Position numbers and translations under genes: made by a program. A DNA stretch of 64,000 nt from an uncultured Candidatus Saccharibacteria bacterium. Lineage in GTDB: Bacteria > Patescibacteriota > Minisyncoccia > Phycocordibacterales > Phycocordibacteraceae. The notes under the pieces are model-generated. The model saw only the letters and a program-made list of their open reading frames with translations, ran no database searches and was not told the origin of the DNA. The stretch is taken from NCBI GenBank assembly GCA_964652615.1, contig CAZZAT010000001.1:8070-72069 (forward strand), written 5' to 3'. The stretch's first letter is position 1; each line of letters begins with the position of its first letter. Shown here piece after piece: positions 1,231-52,631 of the stretch.

Positions 1231-1242
1231 ATCGGAACCCTA

Positions 1243-1265
1243 GCTGTCTGGGACGATGTTGGACC
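1243..1265 (+). promoter_or_regulatory. Copy a of the recurrent motif GCTGTCTGGGACGATGTTGGACC
   Basis: Near-identical 23-28 nt box also at 11133, 48550, 49059 and 49598. Here it lies between the convergent 3' ends of gmk and the 1298..1930 gene, followed by TTCTAGAGTT, which also follows copy b. Confidence 0.4.
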
Positions 1266-1297
1266 CTCTTAGTACTTTCTGGACGAAATTAAAACTT

Positions 1298-1930
1298 CTA
1301 GAGTTTCAATAGCGCTTTTAACCGATGCTTGGTCTGTGGGTGAATATTGTTTTTTGCCATATGCGCAAGGACTTGATCTTTTGCTCGAACTAATTCTCTT
1401 GCAATAAAGGGAGCTGTATCGAGGTACTGCTGGTAGCCCTCTTCGCTGACAACAAAATTTCGTTCGGTTTCTCCGTCAAAATGCAGCCCCTCTATACCCA
1501 TAGCTTGTAGTTCTTTGTTAACGTACGCAAAAGTACGTTCGTCAATACGCTTATTCCCAAAGAAACCGACCTTTGGTTTATCTAAAGTGCGTTCAGAATT
1601 CCGAACCCGCTCACGTATAGTTCCTCCGCGCACTTCTTCTGTGTTTTCAAACGCAGCGTGTATAGCTGGAAAGTGTTTCGGGAAGAGGACTTTCAGCACA
1701 CGGTGCGCATGCAGTGTTTCTTCAGCTCGCAGTTCTTTTCGAAAAGAATGAGCTATTACCAACTCTGGGTTTAACGGGTGCACCTCAACTAGACTCTCTG
1801 CACCCTTACCTAATACTTCTCTCCCGGCTTCCCGAAGTGCCTTTTCGGCCGCTCCCATGGCATCTCTATCGAAACGCAGTGGCGGCATACCTCCTTCTCC
1901 TGGTATCGGGGGAAATTTTTCGTTAGACAT
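1298..1930 (-). CDS. Hypothetical protein (210 aa)
   Basis: Long ORF with no recognisable motif. TATACT sits 7 nt upstream of the ATG, suggesting a leaderless or short-leader mRNA. Confidence 0.5.
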   Translation of the reverse strand: MSNEKFPPIPGEGGMPPLRFDRDAMGAAEKALREAGREVLGKGAESLVEVHPLNPELVIAHSFRKELRAEETLHAHRVLKVLFPKHFPAIHAAFENTEEVRGGTIRERVRNSERTLDKPKVGFFGNKRIDERTFAYVNKELQAMGIEGLHFDGETERNFVVSEEGYQQYLDTAPFIARELVRAKDQVLAHMAKNNIHPQTKHRLKALLKL

Positions 1931-4106: not shown

Positions 4107-4385
4107 CTATTTGCCGACGCCTGCTTCAAACGCGACTTTCACCACTTGGTCATAGAGCCAAGCGATATCGCCTTCGTGCGCATGCAGAATCGTCTGAAGC
4201 GCTCCGCGGCGGCGAATGACGTTCCGGAGGTCTTCCGAAACCGTCTGTCCTTCGCCTTCCTCAAGTTCGTGCTCCTCGTCGAGATAGAAGAGCTCGAGGT
4301 CAGAGCCGAGCTTGGGACGCAACTCTACGATCTTTTCAATCGTGAAGCAGTCAGTGACAGCAAGCAGTTGATCGATAGTTTGCAT
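4107..4385 (-). CDS. Small acidic hypothetical protein (92 aa), co-directional downstream of tgt
   Basis: ORF MQTIDQLLAVTDCF... with an AAGGA SD-like sequence upstream of the ATG at 4385. The longer track ORF (to 4559) overlaps tgt and is probably spurious. Confidence 0.4.
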   Translation of the reverse strand: MQTIDQLLAVTDCFTIEKIVELRPKLGSDLELFYLDEEHELEEGEGQTVSEDLRNVIRRRGALQTILHAHEGDIAWLYDQVVKVAFEAGVGK

Positions 4386-6250: not shown

Positions 6251-8989
6251 TTAGGAGAGGTAGCGTTCGCGTATTTCTGCCTCAACGGTCTTACGATCCC
6301 TGCCATAGGTGAGGTAGGAAAGCTCGCGAAGATCGTTTACCTGCTCTTGGTTTCCCTTTGGAAGATCTACCGTGCGGATATTGAAGGGCTTTTGCGGCAC
6401 GCCTTCAGCCAGAATGCGCACATACGCATTGCGATTCTCGATATTCACAAAATCAAGCGCTTTGAATGCAGGCGCAAACTGCTTCTCGAAGAATTCGCCG
6501 TCTTCCTCGCCTACACGAAACACTGCCATGGAACCGACGTTGCCGAATACTGCATCGCGTATCTTTTCATCTATCTGCTTCAAGAACTGGTGTGCAATCG
6601 TAAGGGACAGTTTGTATTTACGTGCTTCAGAGAGAATGCCTGGAATGGAATCGGTGGTGATGTTTTGGAACTCATCGATATAGAGGTAGAAGGGCGCAAA
6701 GTTTCCGCGCGGATCATCGGCTCTCGAGAGCGCTGCCATGAAAATCTTGCCTACCATGATAAGACCGAGAAGGTTTGCGTTTCTCTCGCCCAGGCGGCCC
6801 TTGGAGAGATTCACTAAGAGAATCTTCCGGTTATCCATGACGTCGCGGAAGTTAAAGGAGGAATACTGCTGCCCTACGATAGGGCGCATGAAGTCGTTTG
6901 CCGTGAAGTCATCGAACTTGTTCGTGATATAGGGCACGATGTTTTCCAAAGATGCTTCGCCTCCCGCCTGCGTTGCAATCTTTTCCCAGAATTGATTCAC
7001 CACAAGATTATTGCTTCGTGAGAGCTTCATATTGCGAAACGCAGAGTCTGAAAGTACGCGTCCAATATCAAGCATGGTTGAGCCAGAGGCAGGATCTTCC
7101 ATGACGAGAAGCGTTGCGTTGCGGAAGTACTGCTCGAAGGCAGGACCCATGCTTTCAGGCACATCGCCATAGAGTCTGCGGAAAATAGCGAGAAGCTCGT
7201 TCACGATGAACGTCTTTTGTTCAGGACGGTTTTCATCGTACTCAAGCAGGTTTAAACCAAAAGGACGCGAGAGCTCTGCGGGGTCAAAGTAAATGACATC
7301 CTCATAGCGCTCGGGCGGCACCAGAGAGAGCACATCGATAATGTCAGAGCCGTGCGGGTCGATGAAGCACACACCCTCGCCGTTTTTCATATCCTGCTCA
7401 ATCAAGGTCTTCATGAATCCGGTCTTTCCAGTTCCCGTCTGCCCTATCACATACAGGTGCCGCAACCTATCAGCAGGCGATAGGCGCACCGCAGCTTCCT
7501 GCCCGCGAAATGCGTTTCTACCGAGTTGAAGACCCTCTCGCGGAAGTGAGAGCGGGGCTGCCGCTGCGGTAAAACGGGATTGCTTTAGGTGCGGCGAAGA
7601 TACGATACCTTTAGGCGGATAGTGATAGAGGCCCGTAAGCTCTTTCAAGGAAAGTGGCATGCGCGCTTCGTGCGAGAAGAGGCGGTAAGTGAGGTTGTGG
7701 TAAAAGCGCTTTGAGTCTCCTTTCTTGATGCGCTTAAAGCCAACGCGGTTTCCTTTTGTGTTTTCGTACTGATTAAAGGCAGCTTCAAGTTCCCCGATAA
7801 TAGCAGAAGCTCTTCCGGGAGCTGCTGACGAAGCAACAAGGCGGATGTTGGTTTCAACAACCGGAGAAGCCATCTTCTTCTCAACGCCTTCTATTGCCGT
7901 CTGGTCAGGCCCGTAGCTTGATGTCTTCGTATCACCCTTCAATATTGAGCGCGTCTCGTACGCAAAATCAGAGAATAGGTCGTGTGAGATTCTAAACGCT
8001 TCACGCTTTGAGACTCCTTTGCGCAGTTCTTTCAACATTCTGCGGTACGTATTCACATACTTATCCTTTTGCGGCTTGAAGATGATTTGCACGGCAGCAC
8101 CCTCGTCCTCAGGCGCAATCTTTGCAAAAGCATTCAAGAGCGCATTCAAGGGGTCGTATTCGAAGTCTTGGTAGTCCTTCAAGGGCAGCGGATGCGCGCT
8201 CTCAAGCTTTGCAAGGGAGCCTTCATTTTCTCCGTCTTGCACAAAGATGTTGTAGTCGTTTGGAGAGACTTCCATGACCGCATGTGGAAACACGGCGAGC
8301 ACTTGTTTCTCAAAGAGATCTCTGCGGGAGTTTGGTACAGCCGCATAGAAACGAAGCTCTGGTGTATCGACAGGAACGGCAAGCTCAAGCGCAAAGTACG
8401 GCGGTTCTCCGCTGTACGCATCTTCAACAGCAAGCATGCCGCTATAAAACTGCTCCATGGGAGCAACTAATTCTCGAAACGCGCGGCGTATACCTCCCTC
8501 TTCCTCGCTTGCTTTCTCGGGGAGCGCTACTTGATACAACGTCATATGAAGCGACTTCCACTCGGGAGCATTTTCAGCAAGACCTTTGAGTGTCCTTCCG
8601 GTAAGGAGGTAGGCAACAAGATAGCGATGGAAATCGTCTTCTAGGTGCGGGCTCTTTAATTTTTCAAGAACAGAGAATGCGTTATGAATGCCCCGAGCCT
8701 CCATAATGAGGCGAAGCTCTTCCATCGTCTCATCATCGCTTTCAGGATCAAGGTTAAGCGCAAGCTCTCTCGCCTCTGTTTCAGGTATCTGATAGTCAGG
8801 ATGGAGCAATTGACCAGCTGGCGTCTTCACATGCTTCGCAAGGCGCTCGCGTGCAGCTGCTTCAGGAGAAACCGGACGCCGCATGCGTTCAAGTTCGCGC
8901 TCTTTCGCTTCAATTTGTGCGCGCAAATGTGCGAGCTCCGCTTCTGGGGAATCGATAGGCGCTACAGGCCCCTCATACTGCATTTCCAT
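6251..8989 (-). CDS. Large P-loop ATPase (912 aa): VirD4/TraG-like C-terminal half, N-terminal ~450 aa without recognisable homology
   Basis: Walker A VIGQTGTGKTGF; CFIDPHGSD (HerA/VirB4/VirD4-type); Walker B FYLYIDEFQN (DEF as in TraG/VirD4); downstream LSLTIAHQFLKQ (AxQ...Q as in coupling proteins). The N-terminal half matches nothing I recognise. Confidence 0.55.
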   Translation of the reverse strand: MEMQYEGPVAPIDSPEAELAHLRAQIEAKERELERMRRPVSPEAAARERLAKHVKTPAGQLLHPDYQIPETEARELALNLDPESDDETMEELRLIMEARGIHNAFSVLEKLKSPHLEDDFHRYLVAYLLTGRTLKGLAENAPEWKSLHMTLYQVALPEKASEEEGGIRRAFRELVAPMEQFYSGMLAVEDAYSGEPPYFALELAVPVDTPELRFYAAVPNSRRDLFEKQVLAVFPHAVMEVSPNDYNIFVQDGENEGSLAKLESAHPLPLKDYQDFEYDPLNALLNAFAKIAPEDEGAAVQIIFKPQKDKYVNTYRRMLKELRKGVSKREAFRISHDLFSDFAYETRSILKGDTKTSSYGPDQTAIEGVEKKMASPVVETNIRLVASSAAPGRASAIIGELEAAFNQYENTKGNRVGFKRIKKGDSKRFYHNLTYRLFSHEARMPLSLKELTGLYHYPPKGIVSSPHLKQSRFTAAAAPLSLPREGLQLGRNAFRGQEAAVRLSPADRLRHLYVIGQTGTGKTGFMKTLIEQDMKNGEGVCFIDPHGSDIIDVLSLVPPERYEDVIYFDPAELSRPFGLNLLEYDENRPEQKTFIVNELLAIFRRLYGDVPESMGPAFEQYFRNATLLVMEDPASGSTMLDIGRVLSDSAFRNMKLSRSNNLVVNQFWEKIATQAGGEASLENIVPYITNKFDDFTANDFMRPIVGQQYSSFNFRDVMDNRKILLVNLSKGRLGERNANLLGLIMVGKIFMAALSRADDPRGNFAPFYLYIDEFQNITTDSIPGILSEARKYKLSLTIAHQFLKQIDEKIRDAVFGNVGSMAVFRVGEEDGEFFEKQFAPAFKALDFVNIENRNAYVRILAEGVPQKPFNIRTVDLPKGNQEQVNDLRELSYLTYGRDRKTVEAEIRERYLS

Positions 8990-11079: not shown

Positions 11080-11132
11080 GAGAGAGAAATTGTACCAAAA
11101 TGGTTATCCACCATGAGCACACATATTTGATG

Positions 11133-11156
11133 GTTGTCTGGGACACTGTTGGAACC
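11133..11156 (+). promoter_or_regulatory. Copy b of recurrent motif (GTTGTCTGGGACACTGTTGGAACC)
   Basis: In the divergent region between the PIF1 helicase (-) and a small + ORF, about 50 nt upstream of the ATG at 11205. Followed by TTTTCACAACATGTGGTACTTTTTTCTAGAGTTAGAAGGAGG, which includes an SD. Confidence 0.45.
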
Positions 11157-11204
11157 TTTTCACAACATGTGGTACTTTTTTCTAGAGTTAGAAGGAGGTT
11201 CATT

Positions 11205-11450
11205 ATGAACATTGTGCAAGTTGCTCGTTTCTTTGAAGCTGTTCGAAGAGAAGGTTCTGTCGCCGTGTCTAAAGAATGCCCGAGTCTTACGGAAGGAAAC
11301 TTCCTTAAATTCGATAAGTTTGGACACCTTTGCGCTGACGCAGGATCGCTCGCCTTGCTTTTTTCCGGCTTGGCAGACCCTAATACAAAGGGTGTTGAAG
11401 AGACTGTGCGCAACGAAATGATAGCGTTCGGTGAACGCTACGTTCGATGA
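11205..11450 (+). CDS. Small hypothetical protein (81 aa)
   Basis: ATG preceded by AGGAGG at -12, directly downstream of motif copy b. The track ORF start at 11100 is upstream read-through across the motif. Confidence 0.4.
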   Translation: MNIVQVARFFEAVRREGSVAVSKECPSLTEGNFLKFDKFGHLCADAGSLALLFSGLADPNTKGVEETVRNEMIAFGERYVR

Positions 11451-11520
11451 AGAAACGAAACCGCTCCAGAGATGGGGCGGTTTCTTGCTGGCAGCTTGGG
11501 ACGAAGTTAGAACTTTACTC

Positions 11521-11952
11521 TTAGCCTTTCAGGTTGAGCGGAGTTTGTACCTCGTCAATTGGTACCTTAAACAAATCTCTGCTTTCTAGCCTTATTTGAG
11601 CACCTCCAACAAGAGCTGCTAGTAGAAAAGAGGCAATAGCCCATCTCATCGCATTGCGCGAATTTTCCCTCGCCTCTTGTAGTTCAAGGTAGTCTATGTA
11701 CGTTGATGCTCCAGAGCCGGAAAGAAAATATCTGTGTTCTCCGTCTCCTTTGTGGTGCGAACCTAGATGAGCGATCAAGGGAGGGTCTCCTTGGATTTCT
11801 CCCATCATGAATCGCTGAATCCAAGTCCACTCCTCATCATCATTAGCGCATGCCGCTTGAAGCTCGCTCATGGTAAAACCAACCGACCCGCGGTCAGACG
11901 CCCACTTAAGGACACGAGTGAATAAGTATTTATCCTTTGAATTGTTGCGCAT
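11521..11952 (-). CDS. Hypothetical protein with C-terminal TM segment (143 aa)
   Basis: ORF only; hydrophobic stretch AIASFLLAALVGGAQI near the C-terminus. Confidence 0.4.
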   Translation of the reverse strand: MRNNSKDKYLFTRVLKWASDRGSVGFTMSELQAACANDDEEWTWIQRFMMGEIQGDPPLIAHLGSHHKGDGEHRYFLSGSGASTYIDYLELQEARENSRNAMRWAIASFLLAALVGGAQIRLESRDLFKVPIDEVQTPLNLKG

Positions 11953-16198: not shown

Positions 16199-16220
16199 GT
16201 GTAAATTCTAACAAATTTTG

Positions 16221-16293
16221 CTGGGGAGCTAGGGCACGATCCTAGAGTCTTCTGCTTCAAAGGCAGACGTGTTACCAATTACACCACTCCCCA
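16221..16293 (-). tRNA. tRNA-Gln (anticodon UUG)
   Basis: Reverse complement UGGGGAG-UG-GUGU-AAUUGGUA-ACAC-G-UCUGC-CUUUGAA-GCAGA-AGACU-CUAGG-AUCGUGC-CCUAG-CUCCCCA-G. It folds as a cloverleaf with anticodon UUG. CCA is not encoded. Confidence 0.7.
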
Positions 16294-22471: not shown

Positions 22472-23128
22472 ATGAATATCCGTGAACTTGCTAGAGACGC
22501 GTTCCCTCCGGAGCTTCTTGAGATACCCGAGCCTCCAGAGCGTCTCTACGCGCGCGGCGCATGGCCAAAGGAAGAAACGAAATATCTTGCCGTGGTTGGT
22601 TCGCGTGCCCTTACGCCGTATGGCCGTTTCGCATGCGAGCACCTCATTACAGGCCTCAAGGGGTATCCTGTCTCCATCGTTTCAGGACTTGCGCTTGGCG
22701 CTGATGCCTGCGCGCATCAAGCTGCATTAGACGCAGGGCTCCATACTATTGCTGTGCTTGGTTCAGGCTGTGATGATGCGTCCATATACCCGAGAGCACA
22801 TGCAGGACTTGCAAAAGACATCTTGAAAAGTGGCGGCCTTATTCTTTCGGAACAGCCTGCGGGGTATAAGGCGCAACCGTATGATTTCCCAAAGCGAAAT
22901 CGCATCGTCGTGGGACTCTCGCATGCAGTCCTTGTCATTGAGGCGGGAGAAAAGTCTGGAACCCTTATCACCGCTCGTCTTGCAAGCGAATATAATCGAG
23001 ATTTATTGTGCGTCCCGCATCGCATAGGAGACCCGAACAGTATCGGATCGCATCTCTTTCTACGGCTCGGCGCAGCGCACATTGCAGCCCCGGAGCATAT
23101 TCTTGAGGTTCTTGGTTTGCAAAAATAA
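22472..23128 (+). CDS. dprA: DNA processing protein DprA/Smf
   Basis: Rossmann-like LAVVGSRALTPYGRF...IVSGLALGADACAHQAAL...TIAVLGSG, which is the DprA signature. Confidence 0.75.
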   Translation: MNIRELARDAFPPELLEIPEPPERLYARGAWPKEETKYLAVVGSRALTPYGRFACEHLITGLKGYPVSIVSGLALGADACAHQAALDAGLHTIAVLGSGCDDASIYPRAHAGLAKDILKSGGLILSEQPAGYKAQPYDFPKRNRIVVGLSHAVLVIEAGEKSGTLITARLASEYNRDLLCVPHRIGDPNSIGSHLFLRLGAAHIAAPEHILEVLGLQK

Positions 23129-28999: not shown

Positions 29000-29941
29000 C
29001 TAAACGCTAAAGTTCTTTACTGAATAAAGGTCTTCTTCGGCAGGCGCATCGCTTGTGGTATCGATACCGGTTGCTTCTTCAAGTTTTTCCTCTGCTTCTG
29101 CTGTCTTTGCGCTAGCTTCTGCAGCAAGAGCAGCAACAATGTTTGAGAGGTCTTCAGGAGAGAAGAATTCAATAAGGACACGACCGCCGTTTGGCCTATT
29201 CTCAATTAAGACGCGGGTGCCAAGCGTTTCGGTAAGCGACTTCTCGATATCCATCATCTCCGGAGTCTTGTCGTGCTTTCGAATCTTATCCTGCGCAATG
29301 CGGCGTACCATCTGCTCCACATGGCGCACTGTAGTCTTTTTAAGAAGAATTTCCTTAAACAAGGTCTCTTGTTCCTGTGGACGGTCCGAAAGCATAAGGA
29401 GAGCTCTCGCGTGTCCTTCGGTAAGCTCCTTCCCTACAACCGCATTTTGTACCGCTTCAGGAAGCAGAAGGAGGCGTATTGAGTTTGAGACGAACTCACG
29501 GCTTCTGCCCACCTTTGCCGCTACCTCGGAGTGAGAGAGGCCGAATTCATCAACGAGCTGTTTCAAAGATTTTGCACGATCGATGGCGTTCAGGTCTTCA
29601 CGCTGAAGGTTTTCGATAAGTGCGAGCTCAAGCTTGGTGCGATCATCTGCAACTTCTTGGCGAATGACGACAGGAACAGTCTTAAGACCGATAAGTTTTG
29701 AAGCGCGCAAGCGGCGCTCACCGGCAATAAGTTCATACGAGCTTCCAAGACCTCCGTCTGCTCGTTCAACATCCTTGCGCGTGACGACAAGCGGCTGCAA
29801 GACGCCGTACTGGCGTATCGATTCAGCAAGAGCTTTCAGTGCCTCTTCGTTAAACTCTCTTCGGGGCTGGTACGGGTTCGGTACTATCTTCTCTACTTCG
29901 ACCCAGTACACCGAGTCGTATTTTGTCGTGTCATTCTGCAT
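29000..29941 (-). CDS. parB: Chromosome partitioning protein ParB/Spo0J
   Basis: ParB box VVEVEKIVPNPYQPRREFNEEALKALAESIRQYGVLQPLVV and HTH. No parA next to it. Confidence 0.8.
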   Translation of the reverse strand: MQNDTTKYDSVYWVEVEKIVPNPYQPRREFNEEALKALAESIRQYGVLQPLVVTRKDVERADGGLGSSYELIAGERRLRASKLIGLKTVPVVIRQEVADDRTKLELALIENLQREDLNAIDRAKSLKQLVDEFGLSHSEVAAKVGRSREFVSNSIRLLLLPEAVQNAVVGKELTEGHARALLMLSDRPQEQETLFKEILLKKTTVRHVEQMVRRIAQDKIRKHDKTPEMMDIEKSLTETLGTRVLIENRPNGGRVLIEFFSPEDLSNIVAALAAEASAKTAEAEEKLEEATGIDTTSDAPAEEDLYSVKNFSV

Positions 29942-35588: not shown

Positions 35589-35614
35589 GTCAATTCCGTT
35601 CGAATAGCGTCCCA
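35589..35614 (+). repeat. 26 bp direct repeat copy 1 (GTCAATTCCGTTCGAATAGCGTCCCA); promoter-associated box
   Basis: Identical 26-mer at 36189-36214, exactly 600 bp away. The next 10 nt (TGGGCCCGCT, 35616-35625) match the 3' end of tRNA-Trp. Read on the minus strand it gives TGGGACGCTATTCGAACGGAATTGAC, which shares TGGGACG.T.TT.GAAC with the 5-copy motif. Confidence 0.5.
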
Positions 35615-35673
35615 TTGGGCCCGCTAAGCAGAAAAAGAAAGTGGCTAACCTTTCGATTAGCCACTCACGAAGT

Positions 35674-36188: not shown

Positions 36189-36214
36189 GTCAATTCCGTT
36201 CGAATAGCGTCCCA
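36189..36214 (+). repeat. 26 bp direct repeat copy 2
   Basis: Identical to 35589-35614. Confidence 0.5.
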
Positions 36215-36300
36215 ACGGGGATGCATTAACTTTCCCCCACTACTAATTTATGTGTACGAAAAGGGCGCGGAGTGTTCTCCGCGCCCTCAAGTCATTTAGA

Positions 36301-47912: not shown

Positions 47913-48458
47913 CTAGGGAGCGGTGAAGAGAATGGAATAATGGTGCGCACCGCCTCGAAAGCCTTTCGCTTTATGGAAACCTGCTCCGATGAAGAGTTCT
48001 TCCGCTGCATGCTCGGAAACAATACGTGCTTCTGAAGGACCTATGCCGCCATAGCAGCCAGCCCAATCAACAACGAGAAGCTTGCCTCCTGAACGCAGCA
48101 CGCGGCGTATCTCATCTATCATTTCCTTCTTACGTTCAATCTGAAACAGAGTGTTTGAGAGAATGACTGCATCAAGAGACTGTTCTTTTAAGGCTGTGCC
48201 TCCGAGCTTTTCAAGATCTCCCCATATCGTCTCAACGTTTTTGAGGCGCAGGTGATGCGCTTCTGCTTTCAGTCTTGTGAGCACGTCTTCTTGCACATCA
48301 ACCGCATATACTCTCCCCTTCTCTCCCACTATCTTTGCAGCTGCAAAAGCATAGTGGCCAGATCCGGCTCCGAAGTCCCCAACCTTCATACCTTCTGCAA
48401 GACCCATTTGAAGAACATTGTCCTGCGGGCTACAGAACCCAGCGGTAGCTTTATTCAT
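47913..48458 (-). CDS. Class I SAM-dependent methyltransferase
   Basis: Motif I VGDFGAGSGHY; acidic motif II VYAVDVQ; post II ILSNTLF. Confidence 0.7.
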   Translation of the reverse strand: MNKATAGFCSPQDNVLQMGLAEGMKVGDFGAGSGHYAFAAAKIVGEKGRVYAVDVQEDVLTRLKAEAHHLRLKNVETIWGDLEKLGGTALKEQSLDAVILSNTLFQIERKKEMIDEIRRVLRSGGKLLVVDWAGCYGGIGPSEARIVSEHAAEELFIGAGFHKAKGFRGGAHHYSILFTAP

Positions 48459-48549
48459 ATGAGTAAAATAGCACGGCGTTCTATAGGCAGTGGTTTGTTA
48501 TCGACATACGCAAACATGGCTTTGAAAGCTTTGACCACAAGGAGTCTCT

Positions 48550-48577
48550 TGCTGGCTGTCTGGGACGATGTTAGAAC
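48550..48577 (+). promoter_or_regulatory. Copy c of recurrent motif (GCTGGCTGTCTGGGACGATGTTAGAACC)
   Basis: About 20-30 nt upstream of the candidate ncRNA. Followed by the perfect hairpin GGGCGGAGTGG-CATAG-CCACTCCGCCC at 48607-48633. Confidence 0.45.
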
Positions 48578-48589
48578 CTTTCTAACTTC

Positions 48590-49035
48590 GGAACCAAAAG
48601 CAGCGGGCGGAGTGGCATAGCCACTCCGCCCTTCCGGCTACAGCTCGGTGTCAATTCCGCGCTTGCCGTTGCCGTACCTTGCTATAGGAACCTCTCTGGT
48701 ATGGAACATTTTTGACAAAGAATCGTGTTGGAGTAGACTCGCCTTCGGTGGTTTAGGCAAACGTTTGTGGTCTGCCGAGGGTTTGACTCCCTCAATGGCC
48801 GTTGTTTTTGGAAGACGGAGACAATCGGGAGTTCGATTCTCCTGAGACGGACTGATAGCTCATCCAGCGTCGCGCAGCCCTGTGCGCCTCACGGCGCACA
48901 TACTAGGTGGGAGACGAAAGTCGCCAATGAGACACCACTCGCGCTGGAAACAAGACTCGGGAGCCTTCGGGTGTGACGGGTCGTCGTAGGTCGCTTAAAC
49001 CACCACCTCGCCACCTCATGATATGAGGTGGTTTT
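48590..49035 (+). ncRNA. Candidate structured non-coding RNA of unknown class (~430 nt)
   Basis: A 680 bp gap with no credible ORF. Bounded by motif copy c upstream and an intrinsic terminator at 49011-49040. Contains a tRNA T-arm-like element GGGAG-UUCGAUU-CUCCU (48829-48846), a cUUCGg tetraloop, and several GC-rich helices. Confidence 0.35.
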
Positions 49036-49040
49036 TGTTT
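49011..49040 (+). terminator. Intrinsic terminator (CCACCTCAT-GATA-ATGAGGTGG then TTTTTGTTT)
   Basis: Perfect 9 bp stem followed by a T-run on the + strand only. Confidence 0.65.
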
Positions 49041-49058
49041 GCATACGATAGTTAGCAA

Positions 49059-49086
49059 GCTGGCTGCCTGGGACGCTGTTGGAACC
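49059..49086 (+). promoter_or_regulatory. Copy d of recurrent motif (GCTGGCTGCCTGGGACGCTGTTGGAACC)
   Basis: About 55 nt upstream of the ATG at 49140; followed by TTTTCACTACATATGCTAGGCT. Confidence 0.45.
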
Positions 49087-49139
49087 TTTTCACTACATAT
49101 GCTAGGCTCTGTCCAGGACAGTAGATGGAGTGAATAGTC

Positions 49140-49538
49140 ATGTCCCTTGATAGAACTGCTGCTTTTCGAGCGAAGGTTGTCTCGGCAAAGGAAAAAGAAG
49201 CGGAGGAGCGTAATGCTCAGGAAGCAGCTAGGGATGCGGAACTCGAACAACTACGAGCCCAGCATCCCGAAGTCGTCGCCCTTTTAAAAAGCGACGACGG
49301 GTGGTTCTGGCCACGCCCCCATGAACCTCTCCCGGAGAAAAAGGCTCCTGCAGGATGCTTCTTTCTCCTCGGAGGCTGGTACGATAATCAAGATGGTCGT
49401 GGTTCTGGCAGAACCTTCTGGAAGCTCAAAGTCGTTGATGCTTCCGTTCGCGAAGTCATCGATAAGATAATAAAGCTTGAGAATACTGGCATGACCAGAA
49501 CAACAGATGACATCTCGAAAGTCAGATTCTTCGGTTAG
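49140..49538 (+). CDS. Hypothetical protein (132 aa), N-terminal K/E/A-rich helix
   Basis: ORF downstream of motif copy d; no motif recognised. Confidence 0.45.
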   Translation: MSLDRTAAFRAKVVSAKEKEAEERNAQEAARDAELEQLRAQHPEVVALLKSDDGWFWPRPHEPLPEKKAPAGCFFLLGGWYDNQDGRGSGRTFWKLKVVDASVREVIDKIIKLENTGMTRTTDDISKVRFFG

Positions 49539-49597
49539 TTCGTCATCCCATCCTTACCTTAGAGAAAGCTGGAATTGTTTCCGGCTTTCATTTTATG

Positions 49598-49624
49598 CTG
49601 GCTGTCTGGGACGATTATGGAACA
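49598..49624 (+). promoter_or_regulatory. Copy e of recurrent motif (GCTGGCTGTCTGGGACGATTATGGAAC)
   Basis: Overlaps the stop codon region of the minus-strand HEPN-like gene. It is oriented so that a transcript from it would be antisense to that gene. Confidence 0.4.
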
Positions 49625-50133
49625 TCTTTATCTACGGATTTGGAGCGTAGTTCTGCAATACTTTGAGCTAGCACCTCGTCGGTAATTCCGTACTTCATTC
49701 GCACAGGTTTGAAGAGTTCCTCAAGTAGCGAGTCAGCATAGCGGAATATCTCTGTTATTTCGTCTAACTCGGCAATCATTCTTGCCCTTCCTTCCGATGA
49801 ATTAAAGTAAATGACTCTGTCTCGGAAATAGTGGTGTATAAGCCAATTCCGTTTTTCAAGCGCATAAGATAGGGATTCAGATAGATTTGGCGGTATGGCA
49901 GTTATGTCTTCCAGTATGGAAATCATCTTTCCTAAAGTACGTTTAGATTGTTCTTCCGTATAAGAATCAAAAAGTGCTTCCCATTCTTTTGTTTCTAGAT
50001 TTCCACGCTTTTTCGGTAATAAGTCTAGATAGATAAGCGCACCTATTAACTCTTGTTCAAGGCATTGAGCACCATAAGCAGCGAGACCGAATCTTGCATA
50101 TACCTCTCTGACCTCCTCTTCTTCGGGAGACAT
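49615..50133 (-). CDS. HEPN-motif protein (172 aa), putative
   Basis: All-helical ORF containing EKRNWLIHHYF, which fits the HEPN Rx4-6H motif (R-N-W-L-I-H). No partner nucleotidyltransferase gene is visible. Confidence 0.4.
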   Translation of the reverse strand: MSPEEEEVREVYARFGLAAYGAQCLEQELIGALIYLDLLPKKRGNLETKEWEALFDSYTEEQSKRTLGKMISILEDITAIPPNLSESLSYALEKRNWLIHHYFRDRVIYFNSSEGRARMIAELDEITEIFRYADSLLEELFKPVRMKYGITDEVLAQSIAELRSKSVDKDVP

Positions 50134-50162
50134 AAAAATTTCCCACCTCCTAGGATTTAACC

Positions 50163-52631
50163 CTACAGCGCCACCATCGATGCAATGCTATCTCCTTCGC
50201 GCATCTTCATGATGCGAACTCCTTGCGTAGCTCTTGAGAGCGATGGAATTTCTCCGGTTGAGGTGCGGATAACCTGCCCTTTCTTTGAAATGACGACGAT
50301 TTCTTCCGTCTCTTCTTCTTTACCGATAAGGACTTTGGCACCGATGATTTCTCCGGTCTTTGCGGTTACTTCAGCAGTCTTTATGCCAGAACCACCTCTT
50401 CCCTGTACTTTGTATTCTGAAAGCTCGGTCTTTTTGCCGTAGCCCTTGCTCATGATGACGAGCAAAGCACCGTCCTTTGCGGAAGCCGGTACTACTTCTG
50501 CAGATACGACGCTGTCGCCTTTTTTCACCGTCATGCCGCGCACGCCTCCCGCAGTGCGGCCCATGGCGCGCACATCTCCCTCATCAAAGCGAATCGACTG
50601 ACCCTTTTCGGTGACGATAGAAACACTGTCGCCTTCTTGTGAAAGGTGCGCAGACACAAGCTTGTCCTTGCCTTTCAAAGAAATTGCGATGATGCCTGAG
50701 CGGCGCACGTCTGCAAAGTTCTTTGCTTCCACTTTCTTTACGACACCCTCTGCGGTAACGAAGAAGACCGAGGTTGCGGCAAGTTCTGCGCCTTTAGGCA
50801 CTGCCAAGACGCTCGTTACTTTCTCTTCGCCTGCAAGCGGCAGGAAGTTCATGATGCTCTTTCCTTTGGTTGCACGCTTTCCTTCTGGTATCTCGTACAT
50901 CTTTGTCTGGTATGCCTTACCAAAATCAGTAAAGAAGAGAAGGTTGTCATGCGATGAAGCTGCAAGGAAGTGCGTTACGACATCTTCTTCCTTTGTCGAC
51001 ATATCGATAACGCCCACGCCTCCACGCTTTTGCGCTTTATATTCTGAAGGGTTGGTGCGCTTTACATAGCCGCCTGCCGTAATCACAAGGACGCTCTCCT
51101 CGTCAGGTACAAGGTCTTCGATTGAAATATTCTTCACGCCGCCTTTCACTATTTTTGTTCGACGGTCATCTCCGTATTTTTCAGAAAGCTCGTTCAACTC
51201 GTCTTTGACGACGGCAAGGATGTTCTTTGCAGAGGAGAGAATCTTCTTAAGCTTCTCGATGAGTTTCTGAATTTCGCTAAGCTCATCTTCAATTTTCTTG
51301 CGTTCAAGGCCTGCAAGAGTTTGAAGGCGCATCGCAAGAATAGCTGCGGTTTGGCGCTCGGAGAACTTAAACTTCTTCTGGAGCTCAAGATCTGCGGTTG
51401 GTACATCTTTTGCCTTCTTGATGATAGCGATGACCTCATCGATATGGTCGAGCGCTTTTGAAAGGCCGAGCAAGATATGCTCGCGCTCTTCTGCTTTTCG
51501 CAGATCGTATTCGGTTCGCTTCTTAACCACATCACGACGGTGCGCGACAAAACTCTCTAGGATACCCTTCAAAGAAAGGGTCTCTGGTACGCCATCAACC
51601 AGCGCGAGCATGTTGTAGTGGAAGGTGCTTTCAAGCTCGGTGTGCTTGTAGAGTGCATTCAAGACTGCTTGTGGGTGCGCGGTTCCTTTGAGTTCAACGA
51701 CGACGCGTATGTCTTCAGCAGATTCATCGCGAAGATCTTTAATGCCTTCAAGACGCTTGTCGCGCACCAAGTCTGCAATCTTTTCTATCAAGGTGGCTTT
51801 GTTCGCGCGAAATGGAATCGAGGTGATGATTATCGAAGATCCCTTCTTATCCTCCACAATTTCCGCAACGCCTCTACATACCACACCACCCTTGCCGGAA
51901 GCGTATGCGTGCTTAATGTCTGCTTGATTGAACGCAATGCCGCCAAGCGGAAAGTCAGGGCCCTTCACGAACTCAAGGAGGTCTTCGGTTGTTGCTTCCT
52001 CATTATCAATAAGGTGGATCGTTGCGGCGACTACCTCGCGCAAGTTGTGCGGAGGAATGTTGGTCGCCATACCAACCGCAATGCCGAGCGTACCGTTTAA
52101 AAGAAGGTTCGGTGCTGCGGCGGGCATTACTCTTGGTTCCTTGAGAGTGCCGTCATAGTTTGGATTCCAATCAACCGTTTCTTTTTCAAGATCGGTAAGC
52201 ATGGATGCTCCGATGCGCGACATCTTTGCTTCGGTATAGCGCATAGCTGCAGGCGGGTCACCATCAACTGAACCGAAGTTTCCCTGCCCTATGACAAGCG
52301 GGTAGCGCGTGGTGAAGTCTTGCGCGAGCTTAACCATAGCGTCATACACTGCAACGTCGCCGTGCGGATGGTACTTACCGAGCACCTCGCCCACTACCGT
52401 TGCAGACTTCTTGGTCTTTGAAGCAGGACCAAGACCTATCTCCCCCATCGCGTAGAGGATGCGGCGATGCACTGGCTTCATGCCGTCTCGCACATCTGGG
52501 AGCGCACGATCGGTAATAACCGACATGGCATAGTCGATAAACGAAGTGCGCATCTCATCCGTAATGGACTGCGCAATGACATTTGCAGCCGTCTGCGGCA
52601 CTACTTCTGCTTCCGGTTCCTTCTTTGCCAT
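50163..52631 (-). CDS. gyrA: DNA gyrase subunit A
   Basis: N-terminal ...[32 protein letters not shown], active-site Tyr region, and C-terminal beta-pinwheel repeats. Confidence 0.9.

Follow-up and report, generated by a model that had tools for sequence, protein, structure and literature searches.

The locus studied here raises a simple question: why does a small gene for a predicted HEPN-superfamily ribonuclease, lying directly behind gyrA, end inside a short motif that recurs elsewhere in the same DNA? The gene, which encodes 172 aa (49615..50133, minus strand), is found in a 64,000-nt stretch of contig CAZZAT010000001.1 (positions 8,070 to 72,069) from an uncultured Candidatus Saccharibacteria bacterium (assembly GCA_964652615.1); this whole stretch is called the window, and all coordinates without a locus label refer to it. 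A sequence-only reading had taken the motif for the promoter of a regulon and had proposed that the copy at the stop codon opposes the HEPN gene with an antisense transcript. The present analysis points to a different role: the motif organises small accessory genes into exchangeable units over many Paceibacterota genomes, which is not the anatomy of a regulon promoter. As for the locus itself, we hold it somewhat probable that the gene is an accessory solo HEPN cassette in an attachment-site (att)-like, tRNA-Gln-derived array between gyrA (50163..52631, minus strand) and an S-adenosylmethionine (SAM) methyltransferase gene (47913..48458, minus strand), with the motif as its junction repeat.

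The motif is 35 bp long (consensus TTGCTGGCTGTCTGGGACGATGTTGGAACCTTTnT), and the window contains exactly six copies of it, all on the plus strand and starting at 1237, 11127, 11485, 48549, 49057 (copy d) and 49595 (copy e). Scored with a position weight matrix (PWM), the six copies reach 31-58 bits, as against less than 5 bits at the next best site, and a 19-mer search allowing up to 3 mismatches gave 4 matches where 0.01 were expected from shuffles. Three copies, not two, stand in a row at the HEPN locus (48549, 49057 and 49595), spaced 508 and 538 nt apart. Copy e (49595..49629) is a degenerate copy of 38.7 bits that contains the HEPN stop, with TTA at 49615-17 instead of the consensus TGT, and also covers the last three codons, D-V-P; the antisense copy over the stop codon that had been reported earlier is thus present as described. 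This overlap amounts to a 4-codon C-terminal extension that is not found in homologs. The copy at 48549..48583 scores best in the window (58 bits) and would form the last junction before the methyltransferase gene. Far from this locus, a second pair (11127..11519) consists of an extended copy at 11127 and the copy at 11485, which abuts the stop of a 143-aa gene (11521..11952), and the copy at 1237..1271 lies 28 nt from the stop of a 210-aa gene (1298..1930, minus strand).

A scan of one genome per species located the motif at approximately 65 places in metagenome-assembled genomes (MAGs) of Patescibacteria/Paceibacterota, where conservation is limited to about 35 nt, and the PWM revealed same-strand arrays with 0.3-1.3 kb spacing and up to 7 copies in 4.8 kb. 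At 72 of 157 copies, a gene on the opposite strand ends 0-16 nt from the GGAAC side of the motif, with a sharp peak at +4. The arrangement of stop and motif at the HEPN gene is therefore the standard one. The genes that end at the motif are, judged by reading the sequences, mutually unrelated and include cupin-like, HAD, NUDIX, GNAT, methyltransferase, nucleotidyltransferase and membrane proteins. Literature searches for the motif sequence and for cassette systems of Patescibacteria turned up nothing.

The origin of the motif is indicated by its similarity to a tRNA. Read in the sense of the genes, it has the form AAAG-GTTCCAACATCGTCCCAG-ACAGCCA-G-CAA and aligns to the 3' half of tRNA-Gln(UUG) through the T-loop, the T-stem, the 7-nt acceptor strand, the discriminator G and CAA, with a 5-nt insertion relative to the tRNA. 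Against eight tRNA-Gln genes the alignment gave z scores of 2.6-5.7, and for three of them the observed score was reached by 0 of 500 shuffles; the antisense motif aligned at the null level, and other tRNAs scored lower with one odd exception. Copies of a "short variant" without the insertion are situated at insertion boundaries, right after the stops of conserved genes, and are near-identical to tRNA-Gln 3' ends. In L012, L025, L032, L038, L081, L086 and L099, the first motif copy is preceded at a distance of 400-1800 nt by a tRNA-Gln in the same sense. The window itself holds a tRNA-Gln(UUG) (16220..16293, minus strand), again with a motif-like 3' half. Downstream of it come small genes on the minus strand and the motif copies at 11485 and 11127; these genes either have no Pfam match at cutoff or belong to small-enzyme or DoxX-type families, not to core functions. 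Direct repeats of a tRNA 3' portion around variable DNA are the classic signature of integrative elements, and their occurrence in arrays suggests repeated accretion. At another locus (L029:4680-4763, plus strand), ARAGORN calls an odd 84-nt "tRNA-Ala(ggc)". At its 3' end the likeness to the motif is as strong as that of tRNA-Gln (z 5.4), and about 420 nt further downstream there is a motif copy; this is possibly a second target tRNA or a mis-called tRNA.

Comparison of related loci showed that genomes swap units and that their homology breaks off at the repeat. The HEPN homolog P0002 in L010, which is 67% identical, carries the motif directly after its stop (TAA-A-GTTCCAACATCG...) amid different neighbours, and homologous pairs of gene and motif in different loci have unrelated flanks on both sides in all nine of nine cases. 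Between L057 and L083 (89% identical), the stretch of homologous DNA begins precisely at one motif copy and stops at the GGAAC end of the following copy. In L021 and L080, whose flanks are 87-88% identical, unrelated 157-aa genes occupy a slot of 507/508 nt whose beginning coincides with the motif's GGAAC end; this slot is empty in L101 (near 4354-4385), where the stop codon is followed by 6 nt, TATACT and ATG. One hotspot contains 1, 2 or at least 5 motif copies in three relatives. Concerning the contents of the slot, one 157-aa product is a membrane protein and the other is nucleotidyltransferase-like by sequence reading (L021, reverse complement, 6535-7042; L080, 888-1394). The window also encodes DprA (22472-23128, plus strand), which processes DNA in natural transformation, and ParB (29000-29941, minus strand), and a competence machinery with DprA would allow cassette exchange by transformation.

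The position occupied by the HEPN gene is variable in the clade. The closest gyrA relatives carry the names Candidatus Paceibacterota or Parcubacteria, and relatives with GyrA 86-91% identical keep the order Lactamase_B_3, 110-aa gene, gyrA, gap, methyltransferase, substrate-binding protein (SBP) and pilins. The gap, which is 48459-50162 here, is a hotspot with unrelated genes in each relative: one holds a 103-aa gene, L104 (3995-4668) a 203-aa gene that is unrelated to the HEPN family, and L105 (8467-9849) genes of 87 and 65 aa together with an inverted NUDIX gene. The 203-aa gene had been considered as a HEPN relative and was rejected on this ground. The HEPN gene is an accessory gene in this genome. 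For the segment 48549-50162 (1.7 kb), the best reading is an array of three units delimited by tRNA-Gln-derived repeats, in which the units, in order from gyrA, would be the HEPN gene, an inverted 132-aa gene with its own promoter module, and an ORF-less unit with a candidate RNA.

Within this array, the HEPN ORF begins with ATG 29 nt past the gyrA stop, has its own Shine-Dalgarno (SD) sequence, and contains ALEKRNWLIHHYFRDR (the EKRNWLIHHYF stretch); the protein sequence includes ALEKRNWLIHHYF. The spacer between the two genes (50134..50162) comprises the SD sequence GGAGGTG at 50145-50151 and, directly 3' of the gyrA stop, the T-arm-like remnant GGTTAAATCCTAG (50150-50162), which resembles both tRNA-Gln 3' ends and the "short variant" boundary copies. 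Scans of the spacer called neither a terminator nor a promoter; therefore, the HEPN gene is likely co-transcribed with gyrA by read-through. The gene is real, as seen from the ORF, its homologs, the invariant residues, the weak matches to HEPN models and a confident AlphaFold2 (AF2) model.

Although a word-indexed search gave just 8 relatives of the 172-aa protein, a profile search of 1.84 billion representatives recovered 2,972 family members at E <= 1e-3 and 1,637 at <= 1e-10, mostly about 170 aa long. Conservation was read from an alignment of 126 diverse members with a mean column identity of 29%, in which G16, E26, G68, R95 and H100 are invariant and N96 (at least 90%), L98 and F103 nearly so. 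The HEPN signature is described as an Rx4-6H motif that closes helix-3 and in which R is followed by a polar residue (N, D or H in most cases), together with a second conserved acidic residue located more N-terminally in helix-2, often as Ex3[KR] (PMC3710099). In the alignment, both the Rx4-6H pattern and the polar residue after R are present; the codons of the predicted catalytic motif, R95-N-W-L-I-H100, lie at 49834..49851 on the minus strand. The AF2 model (pLDDT 92, pTM 0.82) is all helical, and in it R95-H100 forms the C-terminal end of helix 82-100, followed by broken short helices and then by helix 113-147, so that the motif at a helix end with a kink agrees, in secondary structure only, with the description of helix-3 in HEPN proteins (PMC3710099). 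The invariant E26 lies in the middle of helix 3-45 and has no K/R four residues on.

Profile libraries gave recurrent weak matches to HEPN families. Among the 126 members, 33 weakly matched Pfam HepT-like (best 5.4e-5) and 33 NCBIfam HepT_toxin, while other weak Pfam matches were to DUF4145 (12), HEPN_RiboL-PSP (4), and LA2681, Apea and Cthe2314 HEPN (one each); weak PADLOC matches in the family comprised CARF_HEPN, Cas13-ApeA, Csx1/Csm6 and PD-T4-2_B. The 172-aa protein itself scored 14.4 bits with PF01934 (cutoff 23.5) and 15.4 bits with NF047751 (cutoff 60). Hence, the HEPN assignment made earlier from the EKRNWLIHHYF stretch is strengthened by the invariant Rx4H, the N after R, the invariant N-terminal Glu and the recurrent sub-threshold HEPN matches, though Foldseek returned no HEPN structure for it. 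The protein is likely a member of the HEPN superfamily, and would most likely be a metal-independent RNase using R95, N96 and H100.

The HEPN gene has no protein partner. Its neighbours are gyrA and the unrelated 132-aa gene; no MntA/MNT or antitoxin gene stands beside it, as had already been remarked, and none is conserved in 82 homolog loci. No neighbour of any kind is conserved over these 82 loci, the largest recurrent cluster having 4 members from near-duplicate contigs. The family is a solo HEPN and not a HepT-MntA pair, and since the absence of an antitoxin is a family-wide property, it needs no special explanation at the present locus. A conserved small upstream ORF was also considered as an antitoxin and rejected, as the start-overlapping ORFs of 81 aa (L003) and 47 aa (L144) are mutually unrelated. 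Homologs P0006 and P0004 lie inside type I restriction-modification (R-M) operons, and one adjoins a HamA/helicase pair; further homologs adjoin HNH nucleases, AAA_14/DUF4143 ATPases, a Phd antitoxin pair or an integrase fragment. Hsd genes were detected in only 4 of 37 homolog loci of at least 4 kb.

Among described families, HepT of the type VII system HepT-MntA (PF01934, NF047751) is the nearest, sharing an Rx4HxY-type motif (R95-N-W-L-I-H100-H-Y here) and giving the best weak profile match, in which aa 64-104, the motif region, align to model positions 57-99. The 172-aa protein differs from HepT in scoring under the cutoffs, in being about 40 aa longer and in lacking an adjacent MntA. HEPN families embedded in R-M operons and an "integron cassette HEPN" (PDB 3JRT) have been listed (Anantharaman et al. 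2013; PMC3710099, Table 1). These likewise stand alone in defence or mobile contexts and set a precedent for a HEPN protein on a mobile cassette, whereas in the present case Hsd loci are few, Foldseek found no similarity to 3JRT, and the site is not attC. Taken alone, the HEPN gene is ordinary: one more stand-alone HEPN protein, belonging to a family with about 3,000 cluster representatives in which no Pfam model attains its cutoff.

Roughly 15% of the motif copies look like promoters by virtue of a -10 module, which copy d has and copy e lacks. About 17 of 193 copies, including copy d and the copy at 11127, belong to a conserved 62-nt extended form, in which CCTTTcTGCAACATATGcTAgGTTCTGTCTAGAC and a ribosome-binding site (RBS) come after the motif and lead to the start codon ATG of some unrelated gene encoded on the motif strand; besides copy d, 16 further extended copies stand upstream of unrelated genes. 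The geometry of this form is a -35 TTGGAA, an 18-nt spacer and TGn-TAnnnT, and the enrichment of -10-like hexamers is restricted to spacer lengths of 17-18 nt (29/155 copies). In copy d (49057..49119 in its extended, promoter-type form, plus strand), TTGGAA is at 49079-84 and TGC-TAGGCT at 49100-08, and 48 nt separate the end of the copy itself from the start codon of the 132-aa gene (49140..49538, plus strand), which is convergent to the HEPN gene and would be a separate inverted cassette. With these elements and the shared 62-nt module, copy d is probably the promoter of the 132-aa gene, and on this point the sequence-only reading was probably right. On the reverse side of the motif, a TATACT-type -10 with a leaderless ATG is enriched 3-8 nt past the GCAA end (55/154 copies), which indicates that, in gene sense, the motif often forms part of the promoter region for the gene that follows.

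Copy e presents a different picture. It has no -10-like element at 16-19 nt from ATGGAA, its equivalent of TTGGAA, and a promoter scan of 49590-49700 called none on the plus strand; it is also located just downstream of the plus-strand intrinsic terminator of the 132-aa gene (49564..49589; an 11-bp stem with ATTTTAT, possibly bidirectional). These data speak against the proposal that copy e is a promoter opposing the HEPN gene.

In the account that we favour, the repeats would be att-like sites, or scars, from the integration and accretion of small integrase-less cassettes, and homologous exchange at the repeats may contribute. The repeats separate single-gene units of 0.3-1.3 kb, and the resulting arrays, each on one strand, are located at several hotspots of the chromosome, in many cases immediately after a tRNA-Gln. 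A part of the repeats, joined with a -10 box, would have become cassette promoters. The HEPN protein, encoded on one of these cassettes, may act as a latent RNase of the defence or toxin type.

A number of observations weigh against this account, and some of them lend support to other explanations. The gyrA-linked array holding the HEPN gene does not start at a tRNA-Gln, and arrays are found far from tRNA-Gln in other places too. The gyrA gap varies in L104 and L105 without any motif copy, so the motif is not strictly needed for this variation. A Pfam scan of 20 larger ORFs of the window, which was not exhaustive, revealed no recombinase, and no gene family recurs beside the arrays when neighbouring ORFs of 67 loci are clustered locally without a domain scan. 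As to the protein, every match to a HEPN model in Pfam, NCBIfam and PADLOC is below the curated cutoff, Foldseek searches of the AF2 model against PDB and BFVD returned no HEPN structure (best E 0.2 and 0.04), and the family profile matched no HEPN sequence among PDB sequences. The sub-threshold matches and the missing structural match, along with the unusually long AF2 helices (3-45 and 113-147) and the lack of an antitoxin such as many HEPN toxins have, would fit a helical protein of, for example, regulatory or structural function that shares R-x4-H with HEPN by convergence and is no nuclease. We regard this as quite unlikely: R and H are invariant over the 126 members despite the low mean column identity, the top weak matches represent no fewer than six independent HEPN families and were obtained with three libraries, whereas non-HEPN matches are scattered singletons, and certain homologs stand in defence or mobile-element contexts. 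The -10 boxes found at about 17 nt to either side of the motif core, and a related core upstream of two -35 boxes, raise in turn the question of whether the motif could be primarily regulatory, that is, a transcription factor site or bidirectional promoter core of an accessory-gene regulon, with breakpoints arising only because a conserved 35-bp sequence attracts homologous recombination, and with the HEPN gene adjoining a vestigial site. Such a role would be in keeping with the spacing from either edge of the 17-nt core on the forward and reverse sides alike, with the leaderless ATG after 28 motif copies, with the direct TGGRAC repeats of 11-bp period, with the related core abutting -35 boxes at 35.6 and 36.2 kb, and with the encoded DprA, by which natural transformation is possible. 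It leaves unexplained, however, the similarity to the tRNA-Gln 3' half, the placement of arrays downstream of tRNA-Gln and the near-tRNA "short variant" copies at insertion boundaries, and many copies have no -10 box or gene start close by; on balance we find it unlikely, and it does not rescue the idea of an antisense RNA to the HEPN gene.

That idea, in which a promoter in copy e would fire an RNA across the HEPN 3' end to act as an RNA antitoxin or silencer, can draw on the -35-like TTGGAA in the motif, on the extended copies including copy d with their TGn-TAnnnT at 18 nt, RBS and gene, and on a HEPN family without a protein partner. The particular copy concerned is degenerate, has no -10-like hexamer at 16-19 nt and no promoter called by the scan, and overlaps the stop only through a C-terminal extension missing from homologs; more generally, once the extended copies are removed, a properly spaced -10 is not clearly commoner in the other copies than at control offsets (by subtraction, 36/155 against 8-19). 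About 70 unrelated genes, mostly not toxins, share the same juxtaposition of stop and motif, which is thus a general feature of cassette junctions and not a toxin-specific RNA-antitoxin device. We consider the antisense arrangement very improbable. Little better placed, and in our judgement very unlikely, is a function at the RNA level, with the motif as a tRNA-like tag in the 3' untranslated region that affects the processing or stability of accessory mRNAs including that of the HEPN gene. The gene-sense order of stop, motif and often an intrinsic terminator means that the motif would be transcribed, and it resembles half a tRNA; yet its orientation is constant in arrays even where the gene is inverted (type-B units), so that the RNA would then carry the complement, a search for a conserved pairing partner around the strict pattern, up to 40 nt on its upstream and 60 nt on its downstream side, found none, and Rfam has no match.

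The account of a tRNA-Gln-derived cassette array invites comparison with two known kinds of system. As in integron arrays, the units are mostly single ORFs of 0.3-1.3 kb in the same orientation, with a repeat abutting the ORF stop, diverse cargo, and units common to genomes in different contexts. The attC sites of integrons are imperfect inverted repeats, R''-L''...L'-R', that form a hairpin with a GTTRRRY core. The motif, in contrast, is a 35-bp, non-palindromic, sequence-conserved and tRNA-derived repeat without a hairpin partner: its GTTGGAAC does not fit the attC core, and in 74 copies of the strict pattern, the 40 nt before it and the 60 nt after it hold no conserved partner sequence. Motif arrays also occupy several loci per genome, many units have their own -10 and leaderless start, and no intI/attI was seen beside the arrays in the 67 locally clustered loci or the 20 Pfam-scanned ORFs, which is not an exhaustive genome search. 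Islands that target tRNA genes, tandem accretion and integrase-less cis-mobilizable elements (CIMEs) are the other precedent, where direct repeats of a tRNA 3' portion flank the inserted DNA. The likeness lies in the tRNA 3'-portion repeats, the arrays 3' of tRNA-Gln and the units without their own recombinase; the units here are an order of magnitude smaller, the repeats have the 5-nt insertion and also occur away from tRNAs, for example after gyrA, and no integrase was found.

Other candidates for the motif were rejected. Integron attC, dif/Xer, Ter and CRISPR repeats were ruled out on anatomy (a missing hairpin partner, missing inverted arms, an unfitting copy number or an unfitting spacing), and a sigma-54 promoter was dismissed by eye, as TGGGAC-N5-TGGAAC agrees with one neither in its -12 element nor in its spacing. 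A coding remnant was considered since the motif translates to LLAVWDDV(G/R)TF, but the variation among copies is not focused on third codon positions. Matches to C5 DNA methyltransferases, comprising about 35 alphaproteobacterial and nearly all 38 viral matches, correspond to the coding stretch VWDDVGTFDG; outside the searched pattern, their flanks agree about as often as chance, and they were judged a coincidental artefact of the exact-pattern search. In these genes, 21-25 nt of the motif are identical to the VWDDVGTFDG stretch, which lies about 20 aa before the catalytic motif PCQPFS in C5 methyltransferases of Rhodobacterales-type bacteria and phages (L011, L016, L020 and about 30 other alphaproteobacterial loci; viral contigs L106-L143).

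Two further observations concern promoters in the window and in related genomes. A relative of the motif core with 13/17 identity, TGGGACGCTATTCGAACGGAATTGAC, occurs twice on the minus strand (35590-35615 and 36190-36215), and each copy runs into a -35 TTGAC(C/T) upstream of a minus-strand gene, which hints that the core can be a promoter-proximal protein-binding site. Leaderless starts are apparently common in such genomes, with a TATACT or TACACT -10, often an upstream TG, and the ATG 6-7 nt on (for example, in L029, L064, L075, L078 and L084 and at the empty sites of L101), and intergenic spacers go down to about 20 nt.

Regarding the other parts of the HEPN array, the 132-aa protein has no family match in Pfam or NCBIfam, its only Pfam match being to the H-NS N-terminal domain at E 0.36, and its gene is not beside the HEPN homolog in L010. 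The ORF-less unit (48744..49036, plus strand), situated between the copies at 48549 and 49057, is a candidate structured non-coding RNA. It has a sigma70-like promoter at 48712-48739 and, just upstream of copy d, an intrinsic terminator at 49010..49032 on the plus strand; a 12-bp helix closes its 5' and 3' ends, hairpins with 7-nt loops are present, one of them T-arm-like, and the predicted minimum free energy is -122.5 kcal/mol (z -3.95). The unit matched none of the Rfam families at E <= 1, was called neither as a tRNA nor as a tmRNA, and lacks a homolog in the comparison loci, and an Rfam scan of 48.4-49.7 kb gave nothing meaningful. The window as a whole resembles a Paceibacterota chromosome, with about 50% GC, pilin gene clusters of the type IV secretion system (T4SS) type and the gyrA relatives named above. 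Sequencing runs SRR15237804 and SRR15237806 contain the HEPN locus in identical form.

To our knowledge, few mobile elements have been described in bacteria of the candidate phyla radiation (CPR), which have tiny genomes. Our findings carefully suggest, as a possible though doubtful extension, a so far undescribed system of Paceibacterota within the CPR, in which arrays of tiny, mostly single-gene and integrase-less units, bounded by a 35-bp tRNA-Gln-derived repeat, would be founded at tRNA-Gln or, secondarily, behind housekeeping genes (gyrA, for instance), with the units mobilised in trans by a recombinase, with HEPN genes among the cargo. If this is true, the system would be a functional analogue of integrons with a different kind of site, adding a non-attC counterpart to them, and the solo HEPN RNase would be one of its cargo genes. 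The 35-mer would then also provide a sequence handle for the flexible gene pool in metagenomes, and, if the arrays are a dedicated means of cassette capture, they would explain how accessory and defence genes are shuffled in CPR bacteria.

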